Notes: generated by a model not told the origin, from the letters alone. 63,997 nt of DNA, filler included, from Basidioascus undulatus (GCA_000826855.1; 8 parts of 8 records of this genome joined end to end with filler, not necessarily neighbours in it), one strand, 5' to 3'. Shown: positions 12,727 through 62,926, counted from the first letter of the whole stretch. Program-made: numbers and translations.

Positions 12727-14190
12727 TCAAAGCCTGCTGCGGCCCGCCTTGCCCTCCTCGATGACAGGATTGACCAGAGTCCCGATACCACCGCCAATGA
12801 CCACCCGGGTCTCGTCGCCGTGCTTCAGATAAACCGGCGGGTTGCGTGCTATATAAGTAAGAGTGTGAGCGTTACCGAAGGGGAGAGAGGATTGAACGCA
12901 GAAGCTGAGAACACATACCGAATCCGACGCCGGCGGGCTGAGCACAAAGAGGCTCAGCGATTGCGGTCAACAGCAAAGCGTAGGGTTGGTGAGTCACAAC
13001 ATACCGTGCCAGTCCAAATGAGTGAACCCGGAAGCAGGGTAGTGCCTTGGCTAAGGAACGCAATCGTCTTCGCAAGCCCGAAGATCTGGTCCCTGGATGC
13101 GGACATTGGCGATCAGCCTGACGATCAAGATCTGAAAACATAACTGTGCTACGCACTTAGTTGTCCCGTCCTGCAACTTCTCCCCGTTGACCTCAATGCC
13201 GATCGGGAGGTTCTGCGGGTCACGGATGACATTCACGGACACGAGGGCCGGCCCCCATGGCGCACTGCCATCGAACGACTTCGAGAATCCCCATTGACCG
13301 CCCGCAAACTGGTGAGTGCGGAAGGACACGTCGTTGCCGGCCGTGTACCCAAGGACATAGTCCAAAGCCTCAGACTCGGACACGTCCCTTGCAGGCCGAC
13401 CGATAACGACAACCAGCTCACTGTGGGACACGGATGACGGTCAAGACCGTGCTTACAGAGGACGATGCCTCTGCACTCACGCCTCGTAGTCTGATTGGTT
13501 CTCCTTCGCAGGTTGAGCGACGCGAGGAATAATGATGGGTGAGAACGGGTCGCCTAGTTCGTTCAAGTGCCAGGGAATCTCAGTAACAGGGAAATCGATC
13601 AAAGCAAAGAACACGCACCCAGAGCCGTAGTGGGCTTGTAGAACAGAATAGGCTGCTTCGGGATAGCAAGCTTGCACTCCTCCTACAGATACAGACCGTT
13701 AGTCCTATCTGATCAGTCAAGAGATCAACCTGGCGACGAACAGCGTGGTCACGGTAGTCTACAGGCGAGGGCAGTCAGAGTCGAAAGGCTTGACATCGCA
13801 AAGAACTAGCACGTACTGAGCCCCAGGAAACGGACGGTCCCGACCTCCTCGCTAGCAAGAGGTGCCAGCAGTCGCTTAACGGTACGAATCTGTGCATTTG
13901 CTCCCAATTTGTCAGTGTGCGCTTCTGAAGAGGAGAACGTGAGAAGGCATGAAACGCACTTCGCGAGTTGGCCGAGCCTCGAGATCCAGCGCAGTGGACG
14001 AGTTCAGGATGTACGCCTTGGGGGCGCTAGCAACTCCAACTGTAGGAAGATGAGGGTTTCAATGTTGTCTTCCAGGAAGCACGATAATGGACGCACTATC
14101 CGCCTCGGCATCAGCCGGCTCCCCGACGTAGGTCTTCCCATCCTCCACCGCGACGAAGCGGATGAGGCGCTTCCAGTTAGTGTGGACCAT
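12727..14190 (-). CDS. Fumarylacetoacetate hydrolase (FAH) family protein
   Basis: MVHTNWKRLIRFVAVEDG.., DYE(A)ELVVVIGR, YVLGYTAGNDVSFR, WGFSKSFDGSAPWGP, QGTTLLPGSLIWTGT and YLKHGDE..IGTLVNPV. Confidence 0.92.
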
Positions 14191-14674
14191 TCTAGCTTGC
14201 ACCAAGAGAGTGAGTGTAGAGAGTGATGTGTGAAGCGGGCGTAGGATTGATGAACGAGTGAGAGACATGGATGAGAAGGAGGAAAGGTGAGCCCAAGTGA
14301 GCGGTGGAAGGGACCGACGGGACGCCGCCCTCAAGCGTCGGCGGCGTGGCAGCCGGTTGCGAGCGGGCCGGTCAGTCCTCGGAGTCGCCGACAGGCCTCA
14401 TTCTGGTCACGTAACAAAACAGCAATGTTCTGGAAACCTCAGCTGGTTGTACACCTATGCAGGAAACATGTTCACCGGAGTTGACGAAAAAGACAGTTTC
14501 GCCCTCCGGGCTCGCCCTTAGGACGATCCACATGTAACCTCACCCTGCCCTCATGGGCGCTCGATGCAGCTTTCATTGCTTCGTCGAAATTGAATCCCAA
14601 AAGTGCCCATTCGGCCAGCCAATATCTTTTCAAGCAAATCCACGCATTCATAGCAGTTTCGTTTAACAATGTGA

Positions 14675-48289: not shown

Positions 48290-49976
48290 ACCTCGTCTCG
48301 ACTCTCGGCCTGTCCGACTTCCTGACACGCATGTCCACACTCACGTTCACTTCGTCCACACATATTACCATTTTCATAAGAAATAAATACATGCGGAGGA
48401 AGATTTTCAACAAGATTTTGTGCTGGCCCATGCAGGGCTGTTGCGCGTATGAAAGCTGGAGTTGAAGACGCTGCACCGGCTCAAGATGACGAGAGCTTTT
48501 GCCACTCTCATCATACATTTTAGCAGAGTTCGTTAGTCTGTTGCTTGGCTGGGGTAGTGGTAACCTGGGTCGTTGCCATTCGAAGTTCGACCCGCCCCGT
48601 GTTCGATTCACGGGTCAAGCAATTTTTTTGAACCCCCTTTCTCTTCACTCCTCCTTTCCCCTCCGCTCATTTTTATTTTCTGTAATGCCAGCTGATTCAT
48701 GCCGACAGAACCTGCTTGCACACGCAGAGCATATGCCCGACTCCGTGCAATCCCGAAGTCCCACCTGAACTCTCTCTGGAGAATAGCTACTGCCATGGTC
48801 TCTGGAATGCAGCAAGTACGATGTCCTCACTATCTGCGGAAATACCCAACGCTTCCTTGCACAAATCAGCGTCCAGTTGGCAGCACACCCTCCCTCCCCA
48901 CCCAGAAACCTCACCCTCAAACTCTTGCCCCCGCCCACACCCTCCTACACCTCCCCCACATACACCAAATGCACAGTCCTCACATCATTAAAGACTTCCC
49001 TGCTGCACTTGTGCATGGTTCTAGAGTGCTGCATAAGCCGTTCCCTACCGCAGCCTCGCGCCCCTCACGCCCGGTGGGACTTGCACCACTACCGCCGGAA
49101 CGAATCGGAATCAACACATGTTGGAGAGGTAAGGCAGTCTGAGAAGTTCTGAAGACGTACGTTCTTATACCTCGGTCAGTCCTCCTTCTGATGCGCGGGT
49201 CCGCAATACAGCACCGTAACGCACCTGGCACTGAGATCGACACGGCACGCTGCAGAGGAGGCGCATGTGGTAGTCGGGCGAAGGGAATTTGACATAGTGA
49301 TCGGTTTCGTATTGCAGCCAATCTATACAGTTTCTAAGCCTCTTCCAATGGTTTCGTGAAGGCCTCCAGCGTTCAAGGCAACGTCGAAAACGTAGCGGAG
49401 AAGCGACCCGACGCCACAATGCCGACAAAGGCTGGGACCGGGTCGCCGCCGACTTCGAGCTCATGATCAAGTGAGTATTTGCATTGCTGACTCCCGCCGT
49501 CGAAGAGAACGACCTTCTCATACTCCTGTGTACCGTGCAGGTTCGGCATGACCGAGCTCGAGGCTTTGTCGTATGGGAGAACGGTCGTGAGATGCGGTCA
49601 GTCTGACGTGCTCCGACACTCCGCCGAGCTTGATTTAGTTGTAATTAGTTCTGATCAAGTTTGGATTTACAGCGGACCGGCCACCAACCTCTACGAAGAC
49701 TGAGACTGCGTGCGAGTGTTCCAGCAAAATGAACTGAAGTGAAAGGGCACTTCTGCTCGAGACGTGATGTATCCTTGACGTGAACAGTATTCTACGTTCC
49801 CCTTTAAGTAGCAAATTAGTATTCCCGATGAGACATGGTTGATTGCATGCTTTGAGTGTGCCACTGTCACTCGTTTGGCCGAAGGCCTCAACGCGCAGGT
49901 GCACGAAAGAGGGTTCGGCACACATTCGCTGGCGGGAGCACAGACGAAACACATGAGCTTGGAAGCAACCCCCAAC

Positions 49977-52002
49977 TTACAACCCGGGAAGATCCCCCAG
50001 ATGAACAGTCCTGACATCCGTGAATACGTCCCGGCTATAGTCCCCGCCCTCCCTGCCCACGCCCGAGCTCTTCATCCCCCCGAACGGCGTGCTCAGCTCG
50101 CGGACCATCCAGCAGTTGACCCAGACCATGCCCGCCTCGAGCTGCTCCGAAACGCGCCGGATCGTACCCACGTCTCGCGCGAGGAGGACGGCGGCGAGGC
50201 CGTGCGGGTTGTCGTTTGCGAGGGCGATCGCTTCGGACTCGGTCTGGAAGGGCGTTACTGTGATTACGGGGCCTTCGAAAACATGCATGGGTCAGGACTG
50301 TGGGCTCGAACGTGGAAGGCTGAAAAGGGCACCGAATATCTCTTCCCGCATGACCCGCGAGCTTTTCGGGTCCAGTCCCTCCACAACAGTCGGATCAACC
50401 CAGTACCCCCTTCCGCGTTCGCCCTCCCCAGCCCCCAGAATCTCAGGCACGCCTCCTAGCGCGAACGTCCCGCCCTCATCCTTCGCCAGCTGTATGTACG
50501 ACCGGACCTTATCGAAGTGTGCCCCGGACACGACGGGCCCCAGCTTCGCTTCTGGGTTCGAGGGGTCGACGGCGTAGGTCAACGCGATGTGCGACACGAG
50601 CGCGCGGACGAAGGGTGCGTAGATGGTGGATTGGACGTAGATGCGGCTGGCTGCTAGGCAAATCTGTCCGGGGTCGGGGAAAGGCTGTTAGGTGCTGCTG
50701 GCAAGTGTTAGGGGGAGGCGGAAACGACACACCTCGCCTTGGTTCTCCATCGCTGCGCGCGCAGTCAGCTCGACGTTGAACTGCATGACGTCTTTCCCGC
50801 CTTGATCGAAAACAATCAGAGGATTCTTCCCTGATATCCCAGCATCTTCAGTTCCAGAAGCCCATGTTTGCAGGAAGGGGAAGCCAGAGAAAAGACCCAC
50901 CGCCGAGCTCGAGCGAGAGTTTTTTGCCGACTGTGCCTGCGCAGACTTGTTGGATGTGGGTGCCGGTCACAGTGCCTTCGTCGCGACTTTAGATGAGTTT
51001 TTAAAGTCATATAGAGGGGGCTTGGAGACGTACCGCCGGTGAAAGAGATGCCCTTCATACGCGGGCTCTTGACAAGCGTTTCGCCTGTAACAGGGCCTCC
51101 GCCAAAAACGATATTAATCACGCCCGGAGGCAGTCCGGCCTCGCGGATGATGTCGGCGAGAACTGCGAAGGTGTGAAAACAAGTTTAAACGAGGGATCAA
51201 CACCAGACATGGTTGTGAAGGCGCACGGAAAGCGGTGATGCTTGTGAGTTCACTCGGCTTGGCGACTGCCGTGCAGCCGAAGGCGAGCGCGGGCGCTATC
51301 TTCCATGTCAGGAGGTAGAGTGGTAGATTCCCTGAGTCCTTTAGAAGTGAGATATGGCCTTTTGGGATATGGTAGCAACCGGAGAATTGGCTCACAAGGT
51401 GAGATAAGAACAAACGGTCCTTTCGGACTGCGGTGCTCGTAAGTCAGAGCGACGCCGTCGATCTGGCGCATCGCATGCCACTGTGTGGAGTTCAAAATGT
51501 CAGAAAGAATATCCCTGTAGGCGGTCTATATCATAGCGCAAGACAGCTTGCTCACCTCGTGCAGGATGTACGTCGCAAAATACTCGAAGTTCGCAATCGC
51601 ACGGTCCACCTCCATCCTTGCCCTGACAAGCGTCTTTCCCTGATCCACCGATTCCCACACCGCAAGGATCTGCTTCCTTCCCTTCATGATCTCCGCCACC
51701 CTAAGCAGGTACTTCGAGCGCGTCTGGCAGGGCAGCGCCGACCAGGCCGGGAAGGCTGCGACAGCCGCGTCGATCGCACGCTCGACTTCGGGGGCGGCGG
51801 TGGAGGGAACGAGCGCAATGACGGTGTCGTTGCGGGGGTTGCGGCTTTCGGTCCAAGAGTCGGGGGAAGAGGCTGTACGGGGGAGGAAGGCGCCGGCGAC
51901 GAAGTTCGCGAGCTCGAGAGGTGCGGAGACGCTGTTCGCGTCGGAGAAGGTGTTGGCTGCCCAGGCTTGCTTTAGGGTATCTTCAGAAGAAATTGAAGAC
52001 AT
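49977..52002 (-). CDS. 2-aminomuconate-semialdehyde dehydrogenase-type aldehyde dehydrogenase (ALDH8A1/AmnC/HMSD subfamily)
   Basis: [78 protein letters not shown] and [27 protein letters not shown]. Confidence 0.9.
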
Positions 52003-52373
52003 GATGGACTCTCTGAGGGCGGGGATTCAAGGACGCAGACTCGATCGAAAGGGCGGCGTGAGACCTGAAGTGGGCAGCCTTGAAAGTGCCGCAGCTGGGG
52101 AAATTGGGTTGTGAGATGATAGACAATTGGAAGGAGTTGATTCGACCACTAGGAGAGATGTCGAGGAATGGGATGGTTGCGGCGGAAGACGCGACACTCA
52201 GAGCAACAGTATGCGGCGGAGATGGTCAGGTGTCTCGGGGCGACAGAGCCGAGCCACGCCCCTTCCCTCCATCGAACTCCTCCCACCGCCGTTGCACCTC
52301 AAAAAACACCTTTACACCTCTCCCACTCCCACCATCACTTTCACGCTGCCACCGTTACGCTCTGAAAGTGATT
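52003..52373. promoter_or_regulatory. 371-bp divergent intergenic region shared by the dehydrogenase and deaminase genes
   Basis: ATG 52002 (minus) and ATG 52374 (plus) are head-to-head. Confidence 0.6.
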
Positions 52374-52939
52374 ATGACCAGCGGCAACGGTACCCCCGTT
52401 TTCCTCGACGAAAGCCGAGCACAGGGTGCGTAGTAATCTGCTGTCTTGAAAACTACATCGGCCACTGGAGTCACAGTTGATATTCTACTACTCAAGGTCT
52501 GGCCAATTATCCGCACGCCAGAATCGTCGGGAACACAGTCTACGTGTCCGGGACGTCTTCGCGCCGCGGCGACGGGACACACGAGGGCGTGCGTTTCTTC
52601 CCCGCCTTCCCTCCTCAGCCACCTTCCTCAAACCCTCCCCAACAGGTAACCGTCCACACCGACGGCTCATTCATCACGGACGTCTTCGCCCAGACGCGCG
52701 CAGTCCTGACCAACATCGCGTCGATCCTCGAGCTCGTGCAGCCGCCGCTCTCGCTAGCCAACGTCGTCGACGCGACGGTCTTCCTGGTCGACATTGCCGA
52801 CTACGCGGATATGAACAAGGCTTGGAACGAGTTCTTTCCGGACCGTACTCAGGCGCCGGCGAGGACGACGGTCGCGGTGCACCAGCTCCCGAATGCGAAG
52901 CTGAGGGTGGAGATCAAGGTTACGGCGGTTCTCGCGTAG
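52374..52939 (+). CDS. RidA/YjgF-family 2-aminomuconate deaminase-like protein (AmnD/NbaF type), 145 aa
   Basis: Exons 52374-52425, 52497-52588 and 52646-52939. Motifs LANYPHAR..VYVSGTSSRRGDGT, QTRAVLTNI, DMNKAWNEFF and PARTTVAVHQLP..VEIKV. Confidence 0.88.
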
Positions 52940-53350
52940 TTGATGTGGTTCAGGGTCATGAATATGGGGTTGGACGGTAAAGTATGGCATCCATGCAAAC
53001 CTCTTGAGCTGCGACTTGAGCGAGAGGTGTATTAAGATGCCGGGATACACGAATGTGCCATGCAGTGCTGTAAACCGGGTGCAGAATGCTGCACACGGGC
53101 GTGAAACGATGACTGAAAGACCGACGTTGTGGCTGTGTTTGTTTCTTGATCGGGTCCAATAACAGCTCACGGTGAACTGCACTAAGCCGAAGTGTCTACG
53201 AGCGTTGAGTGGTGCAACAGGACTGCGAGCCGATTCGATCCTGGACCCCCCTCTCCAATTCTCCCGTTCCGCCCATCGAATACTCGGACGGAAAGATGAC
53301 AGTAAGCAACAGCAGCTCGATCCCATCTGTCCATGTCAAACGCTGCACAT

Positions 53351-53637
53351 CTAGCTGTACATCCCCCCAAACTCCTCCCTCTCCCTCTCCTGCTCCTCCC
53401 GTCTCCTCCTCATGCGCTCCTCTTCCTCCTGCGTACCACCTCCGACACCAGCTCTTCCTCCCTCTCCGAACATTTGCCGAATCGCTGCGACGTCCTCCGC
53501 GTCCAGCCCCTCAGGACCGACAAGGTTCAGCACTGCTCTTCCGCCGGTGAGGGAGTCGAGGAGAGCTTGGAACGCGGCAGCGGGCGTTGGTTCGGGCTGG
53601 GTTTGGGGTTGGGTCCAGCTTGTTGGTTGAAGGGAAG
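53351..53637 (-). CDS. Last exon of a truncated gene ending EREEFGGMYS*
   Basis: CAG acceptor at 53638-53640, open frame to TAG 53351. Upstream exons are lost at the contig end. Confidence 0.55.
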
Positions 53638-53680
53638 CTGCTTTCGCATGTCAGTGGTGAGCCTCGCAAGTCTAGCAAAA

Positions 53681-62840: not shown

Positions 62841-62926
62841 TCTTCGGTGGCGCAATTGGTTAGCGCGTCCGACTGTTACTTCAAGAGTGGATCGGGAGGT
62901 TGTGAGTTCAAGTCTCACCTGAAGAG
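62841..62926 (+). tRNA. tRNA-Asn(GTT) with 12-nt intron (62879-62890)
   Basis: Acceptor TCTTCGG/CTGAAGA, D-arm GCGC/GCGC, anticodon stem TCCGA/TCGGG with GTT at 62875-62877, T-arm GTGAG-TTCAAGT-CTCAC and discriminator G. Confidence 0.95.

Follow-up and report, generated by a model that had tools for sequence, protein, structure and literature searches.

The locus described here raises the question of whether two neighbouring genes of Basidioascus undulatus encode consecutive steps of 2-aminomuconate catabolism under joint control, and of how such a pair came to be present in a basidiomycete. The stretch of DNA analysed (63,997 nt, hereafter the window) consists of contigs joined by N spacers and derives from an assembly of 2992 contigs. 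Both genes are located on a single 5391-bp contig (G000:C1054, window positions 48290-53680). The reading that we favour, with a probability of about 0.7, is that they form a pair of steps of the lower kynurenine pathway, under joint control and acquired by vertical descent.

The assembly may have been built from sequencing runs X1 and X2, which do not constitute independent data. Run X3 carries the label 'DNA?' (a guess) and is assigned to the sample of X2; it contains joints that skip introns, unlike X1 and X2, in which none were found, and we infer that it is RNA-derived. C1054 can be assigned to the host, because its depth (18.9 in X1 and 37.6 in X2) resembles the values obtained for further long contigs in these runs (15.1-17.5 and 37.1-47.3, respectively), a paralogue of one of the two genes with the same introns is present on a 41-kb contig, and tRNA-Gln is multi-copy in the genome. 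The host lineage was assessed with a helicase encoded on the neighbouring contig, for which 8 of 8 named clusters (10 matches looked up) were basidiomycete. A tree of 25 rows places this helicase as the sister lineage of a pair of Wallemia species (100/99). As a single marker, it points to a basidiomycete on the Wallemia side: the basidiomycete assignment made in the initial annotation stands, while the reference to Pucciniomycotina is not supported. Joining C1054 to contig C2713 was considered and rejected, since its last 69 nt match an internal stretch of C2713, i.e. a repeat or branch. No end overlap was detected between C1054 and the stretches of C38 or C2984, the contigs with other pathway genes described below.

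The first gene of the pair, encoding an ALDH of the AMSDH/ALDH8A1 type, occupies positions 49977..52002 on the minus strand. Its model comprises eight exons (52002-51556, 51480-51396, 51331-51227, 51162-51034, 50975-50901, 50830-50733, 50663-50333 and 50272-49977) with no internal stop, and specifies a protein of 521 aa. The seven introns are all of the GT-AG type and 58-75 nt long; six of them are spliced out in X3 contigs at the positions of the model, and no joint is listed for the seventh. The second gene (52374..52939, plus strand) encodes a protein of 145 aa, identified by the gene model, PF01042 and a tree as a putative 2-aminomuconate deaminase (AMD) of the AmnD/AmnE type with a Rid fold. 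Its three exons (52374-52425, 52497-52588 and 52646-52939) are separated by introns of 71 and 57 nt, both spliced out in X3 contigs at the predicted places; intron 2, if read through, would produce a 19-residue insertion missing from all 31 aligned homologues. Two intact, intron-bearing genes placed head-to-head on one contig, as first described, are thus confirmed by the gene models together with X3 joints for eight of the nine introns.

Pfam Aldedh matches were obtained on five exon-bearing frames of the ALDH gene. Among NCBIfam models, HpaE and hydroxymuconic-semialdehyde dehydrogenase were best for most exons, none at cut-off because the exons were scanned singly, and HpaE was the top PDB match for exons 1 and 8. 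An 11-residue motif is present at residue 178 and a 10-residue motif (WVNCWxVREL in the initial annotation) at residue 474. Residues of the Pseudomonas fluorescens AMSDH (PDB 4I1W) were mapped onto the protein via a bacterial AMSDH (L093). The substrate arginines R134 and R481 align with R120 and R464 of 4I1W, and C315, E278 and N179 with its catalytic C302, E268 and the oxyanion N169. R120 and R464 are involved in substrate binding and are a hallmark of the HMSDH family (PMC4286809). As they mark the whole family, these arginines cannot tell amino- from hydroxymuconate semialdehyde enzymes; an outgroup ALDH (L138) likewise has R in both columns of the alignment. With the two arginines and the Cys, Glu and Asn residues all kept, the protein is a predicted member of the HMSDH/AMSDH family. 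In a tree of 54 rows it forms a clade with 31 Pezizomycotina-type rows (SH-aLRT 100), which places it beside AMSDH proteins from fungal kynurenine clusters and apart from the remaining ALDHs. No second close ALDH copy was found in the genome. A search of the ESM Atlas with exon 1 returned generic bacterial clusters.

The AMD protein contains SGTSSRR at position 35, PARTT at 119 and VHQLP at 126; all four motifs quoted in the initial annotation were found in the two proteins. The best solved relative of AMD among 45 matches is AmnE (PDB 6IZH), with 77 bits compared to 46 for the next, and the window protein shows no change at the AmnE cleft residues S35, G36, R117 and K135. The active-site arginine characteristic of the Rid fold is R121, corresponding to AmnE R117. 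Identity amounts to 57-59% with AMD-type proteins of an Aspergillus and a chytrid, and to only 27-33% with E. coli RidA and the two Rid paralogues of the same genome. A tree constructed with FastTree (77 rows, 137 columns, long outgroup branches) from 44 of 120 listed homologues, 23 chytrid-free loci rows and controls split 74 AMD-type rows from E. coli RidA and the two paralogues with a support of 99. Assignment to the housekeeping RidA/Mmf1 type was rejected on the basis of this low identity and separate clade, in agreement with the view taken initially. The nearest ESM Atlas cluster to AMD is mostly composed of Ascomycota.

The initial annotation linked the pair to the breakdown of 3-hydroxyanthranilate or aminophenol. 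The former route is supported by the AMD tree and by the presence in the genome of HAAO and ACMSD, as had been anticipated; the aminophenol option found no support here. HAAO is intact (173 aa, six introns) and located on contig C2984, while ACMSD and kynureninase lie ∼2 kb apart on C38, with one gene between them. IDO is encoded on C2886, and 2-oxoadipate dioxygenase/decarboxylase is present, split across two contig ends. In this fragmented assembly, both ACMSD and HAAO are absent from the 5.4-kb contig carrying the pair. Together, IDO, kynureninase, HAAO and ACMSD would supply 2-aminomuconate semialdehyde, which has a half-life of ∼9-35 s (PMC4286809). The ALDH would grip this semialdehyde by its two arginines and oxidise it with NAD+ before cyclisation to picolinate. 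AMD would free ammonia from the resulting 2-aminomuconate (half-life ∼160 min; preprint 10.64898/2026.06.05.730449), yielding 2-oxohex-3-enedioate. This last reaction is very probable, since the Pseudomonas and A. flavus orthologues of AMD have been assayed.

The linkage of the two genes was examined in metagenomic loci, of which 80 of 126 confirmed were kept, 27 of them with a eukaryote-type AMD (L095-L121). An ALDH is also present in 18 of these 27, in a head-to-head arrangement in 16 and in tandem in two (L119 and L120). The 16 head-to-head loci correspond to 11 distinct ones by AMD at 95%, with 431-642 nt between the first aligned codons. Nine loci lack an ALDH: six have less than 1 kb upstream and L104 is a fusion gene, which leaves L114 and L115 as genuine cases of AMD with no AMSDH nearby. 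Seven of these metagenome loci group with named Pezizomycotina in the AMD tree, unlike L104. AMD-AMSDH linkage was also identified in named genomes (PFICI_02120/02122 and A1O1_02149/02147), and conservation of the pair, a check proposed in the initial annotation, holds for Pezizomycotina-type loci. Of 553 confirmed bacterial AMD-family loci 80 were kept, and 66 of these have AMSDH, ACMSD or HAAO within 6 kb. With respect to introns, none of the 27 eukaryote-type loci has any in AMD. The ALDH gene of the window has intron positions 212.1 and 313.0 in common with the ascomycete loci, the other five being its own, and ACMSD has no intron position in common with them.

The two genes are separated by a divergent intergenic region of 371 nt (ATG to ATG, 52003..52373), a putative bidirectional promoter from which both would be transcribed outward. 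X3 pieces extend to 52170 on the ALDH side and start at 52293 on the AMD side, leaving ∼120 nt between them; it should be noted that contig ends do not fix the true transcription starts, and that the contigs give no expression levels. With both genes spliced in one run and at most ∼120 nt between their transcript pieces, co-regulation is plausible. CGG repeats are binding sites of Zn(II)2Cys6 proteins, and the sequence CGGCGGA occurs first at 52180..52186 (plus strand), as a candidate site of this type, and again within a 20-nt non-coding block (52214..52233, plus strand) that falls inside the gap between the X3 transcript pieces. An identical block is located upstream of a frameshifted AMD duplicate on the 41-kb contig (G000:C2216); the genome contains exactly these two matches at up to two mismatches, both perfect, and none was found upstream of its own ACMSD, HAAO or kynureninase.

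The more general pattern CGG-N0-4-CGGA was counted twice for the window against 0.45 expected, a result that is weak alone, as 23 of 300 shuffles reach two. In 10 intergenic regions of ascomycete type (10 of the 16 head-to-head loci, near-duplicates omitted), all 10 contained the pattern, with 22 copies compared to ∼4 expected. Two copies are also located upstream of the host's own ACMSD (9 of 300 shuffles), and none upstream of its HAAO or kynureninase. Since the pattern was picked after viewing the sequences, it constitutes a lead only. The 8- and 9-mers common to the window and at least three ascomycete intergenic regions were limited to GC-rich or polypyrimidine words. Overall, it is fairly likely that the two genes are switched on together via CGG-repeat sites.

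Trees were used to trace the origin of the pair. For AMSDH, the window protein branches next to a clade made up of all 31 Pezizomycotina-type rows (support 100 for the sister relationship, and 98 for their own clade) in a tree from which other basidiomycete, chytrid, mucoromycete and animal AMSDH were absent. ACMSD likewise is sister to all seven Pezizomycotina rows (100; 93). The same holds for AMD and its 30 Pezizomycotina rows, chytrid proteins branching outside both (98; 99). Bacterial sequences form a more distant group in both the AMSDH and AMD trees, and none of the tree rows could be recognised as an early-branching ascomycete. In AU tests with 22 ALDH rows, nesting with three ascomycete groups was rejected (p 0.018, 0.031 and 0.017). 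ACMSD, AMSDH and AMD of this basidiomycete all take the positions expected from the species tree, so that the ancestor of Dikarya probably had the pathway and most basidiomycetes lost it. Its presence in that ancestor is also expected from its frequency outside Dikarya, where FAMeDB records ACMSD, AMSDH and AMD in 22, 23 and 18 of 50 proteomes, compared to 7, 8 and 15 of 50 random ascomycete proteomes (PMC13094099). On balance, and judging by these sequences, descent of the pair from an ancestor shared by ascomycetes and basidiomycetes is somewhat the better supported history.

The alternative that survives best retains the same function and assumes that the pair, perhaps with ACMSD, was acquired by an old transfer from an unsampled early-branching ascomycete, its introns being gained later. 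Such a transfer would explain the scarcity of the pathway in the group: ACMSD, AMSDH and AMD occur in 0 of the 50 basidiomycete proteomes of FAMeDB, whose supplement does not mention Wallemia (PMC13094099), and no named basidiomycete is present among the best 120 of 7972 AMD matches. The ALDH profile search had a row of ascomycete type in the lead, for which reason the absence of basidiomycetes from it is not evidence, and an exon-only search among longer proteins (one match in 918 candidates) is uninformative on distribution. Among the 120 listed AMD homologues none is closer to the window protein than the 68-row clade holding Pezizomycotina, the N-terminal extensions of AMSDH and ACMSD are common with Pezizomycotina, and sisterhood of AMSDH with L120 was not rejected (p 0.17). 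However, three genes on two contigs agree on a position outside Pezizomycotina, and their divergence from Pezizomycotina-type orthologues (identity of 54-60% for AMSDH, 50-59% for AMD and 52-56% for ACMSD) equals that of HAAO (56%, one locus), a gene kept by 46 of the 50 basidiomycetes (PMC13094099). Moreover, the window AMD lacks the insertions of the Pezizomycotina rows and keeps VAVHQLP, as in bacterial rows, and the pathway is frequent in non-Dikarya, as noted above. A transfer is considered unlikely.

The AMD duplicate on C2216 bears on a further possibility. It is 70% identical to the window AMD, has the same two introns (only 47% and 59% alike in sequence) and carries three single-base frameshifts; no ALDH was found within the 7 kb examined around it. 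Similarity between the two copies ends ∼175 nt upstream of the ATG, short of AMSDH. Substitutions are concentrated at third codon positions (58/145, compared to 19/146 and 13/144 at the others), which indicates that the C2216 copy was long under selection and decayed late. All of this would fit vertically inherited genes whose adjacency was rebuilt, AMD and its promoter block having been copied from C2216 to the AMSDH promoter before the old copy decayed; duplication, relocation and loss are a recognised route to gene clusters. Nevertheless, the same divergent layout with similar spacing is present in the 16 ascomycete-type loci, which makes an outward copy of AMD from an ancestral pair the simpler reading, and a rebuilt adjacency is quite improbable. 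Finally, although AMSDH-family enzymes also accept 2-hydroxymuconate semialdehyde (PMC4286809) and other genes in this genome lie head-to-head (e.g. kynureninase and a gene that looks unrelated to it, with 278 nt between predicted starts), a role of the pair in converting 2-hydroxymuconate semialdehyde or in the ring cleavage of aminophenol, or a general imine deaminase adjacent by chance, is very improbable in view of the AMD motifs and tree position, the HAAO and ACMSD genes, the lack of RidA-type activity reported for the A. flavus enzyme (10.64898/2026.06.05.730449) and the linkage conserved elsewhere.

The enzyme system of the favoured lower kynurenine pair is already known, and what is new is its basidiomycete host; the novelty claimed in the initial annotation was overrated. 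A 3-hydroxyanthranilate cluster of Ascomycota (3HAO, ACMSD, AMSDH and AMDA) was described in 2021 (PMC7842363), and the AMD activity of A. flavus was shown in a 2026 preprint (10.64898/2026.06.05.730449). The Ascomycota cluster contains the same two enzyme families, in adjacent genes whose sequences are sister to those of the window, and the Pezizomycotina-type metagenome loci display the same AMSDH/AMD head-to-head layout with two common AMSDH intron positions; it differs in that the present host is a basidiomycete with ACMSD and HAAO off the 5.4-kb contig. According to the preprint, every cluster gene except the ascomycete AMD has introns, in line with the 27 loci examined here, whereas the window AMD has two. 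The conserved head-to-head pair that it reports is HAAO/ACMSD, not AMSDH/AMD. In chytrids, a Batrachochytrium cluster was listed in 2026 by FAMeDB (F4P9E8/F4P9E9), with AMD and AMSDH annotated from gene-cluster presence and cited as unpublished results; AMD and AMSDH accessions are consecutive in two chytrids (PMC13094099, Tables S2 and S6), and the FAMeDB AMD entry TPX77977.1 is row P0095 of our analysis.

The bacterial amn/nba operons (AmnC/AMSDH, 4I1W and 7BZV; AmnE/AmnD, 6IZH) have the same ALDH catalytic and substrate residues and the same AmnE cleft residues, but their genes are co-directional in the loci examined, whereas here two spliced genes diverge. Humans share the dehydrogenase step (ALDH8A1, with ASPDH/AMR), after which animals reduce 2-aminomuconate and fungi deaminate it; the mammalian gap, initially presented as a missing deaminase, is filled in metazoans by the reductase ASPDH (10.64898/2026.06.05.730449). 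In the literature found, neither the pathway nor the pair is described from a basidiomycete, apart from two weak hints, a Taiwanofungus ALDH called similar to human ALDH8A1 (PMC8865532) and a label '2-aminomuconate' from untargeted MS of Ganoderma, assigned with no standard (PMC8719765). The term 'basidiomyc' is absent from the main text of the preprint, and its supplementary figure covering 5,570 eukaryotes may show basidiomycete AMDs (10.64898/2026.06.05.730449).

The fungal end of this pathway was assigned only in 2021-2026, and the present locus fills a gap in what is known of its past. We suggest, tentatively and at less than even odds, that the divergent pair and its CGG sites were already together in the last ancestor shared by ascomycetes and basidiomycetes, or perhaps in early Fungi, and have remained so, and that the host, as a rare case among basidiomycetes, retains the entire lower kynurenine pathway in two fragments of an ancestral cluster (AMSDH/AMD, and kynureninase and ACMSD with one gene between them) under one transcription factor. 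The split between these two groups dates back several hundred million years, and if the head-to-head layout was inherited, this metabolic gene neighbourhood would be older. The two AMD introns indicate that the lack of introns in ascomycete AMD does not extend to all fungi, and the 20-nt block, still present in the decayed duplicate, provides a defined site with which to look for the regulator. Chemically the locus adds nothing new; its value is evolutionary, as a rare case of a basidiomycete in which the lower kynurenine pathway has survived, with an AMD that has introns and an arrangement also present in moulds.

Besides AMSDH and AMD, two further kynurenine-pathway genes are linked in the Basidioascus undulatus genome, on contig C38, where the genes for kynureninase (G000:C38, start L009:1877) and ACMSD (G000:C38, start L009:5502), both on the minus strand, are separated by ∼2 kb containing a single Pfam-less gene. 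Contig C2216 carries another AMD copy (G000:C2216 ∼14073-14660; L011:3074-3660), which is frameshifted and shares the introns of the AMD gene in the window. It is oriented away from a GATase and chorismate-binding gene of the PABA/anthranilate synthase type.

In the fungal metagenome locus L120, AMD is part of a larger array (L120:956-12133) comprising genes for a transcription factor, HAAO, ACMSD, AMSDH and AMD, followed by a PF07063 gene, encoding 2-oxoadipate dioxygenase/decarboxylase, and a quinone-oxidoreductase-type MDR gene. An MDR gene also adjoins AMD in locus L115 (56% identity to the L120 MDR). A candidate downstream route would proceed by reduction to 2-oxoadipate, which would then be processed by HglS. 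The MDR matches in the B. undulatus genome show 30-42% identity and are located on other contigs. By sequence appearance, an amino-acid-permease-like gene lies downstream of AMD in five loci (L103, L105, L108, L109 and L112). In locus L104, which derives from a GC-rich organism, acireductone dioxygenase (ARD) and an AMD-type domain are fused in a single 427-aa frame (L104:2-1282).

Within the window, positions 49337-49926 are similar to G000:C673:2758-3313 (69% identity) and contain short frames with neither a Pfam match nor cover by contigs of sequencing run X3; this stretch is possibly a decayed gene or a repeat. The 3' end of a frame convergent with AMD (53334-53680, minus strand) is covered by an X3 contig, and the final 69 nt of this stretch recur within contig C2713. 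Genes for tRNA-Gln(TTG), which is multicopy with many copies in the genome, and tRNA-Asn(GTT) are located at 48542-48622 and 62841-62926, respectively.

ATEG_05745, which a 2021 proposal named as the deaminase of A. terreus, is matched in one of the 150 proteomes in Tables S4/S6 of the FAMeDB paper (PMC13094099), compared to 33 matched by the chytrid-seeded AMD group in the same tables. ATEG_05745 may be something other than the true orthologue.
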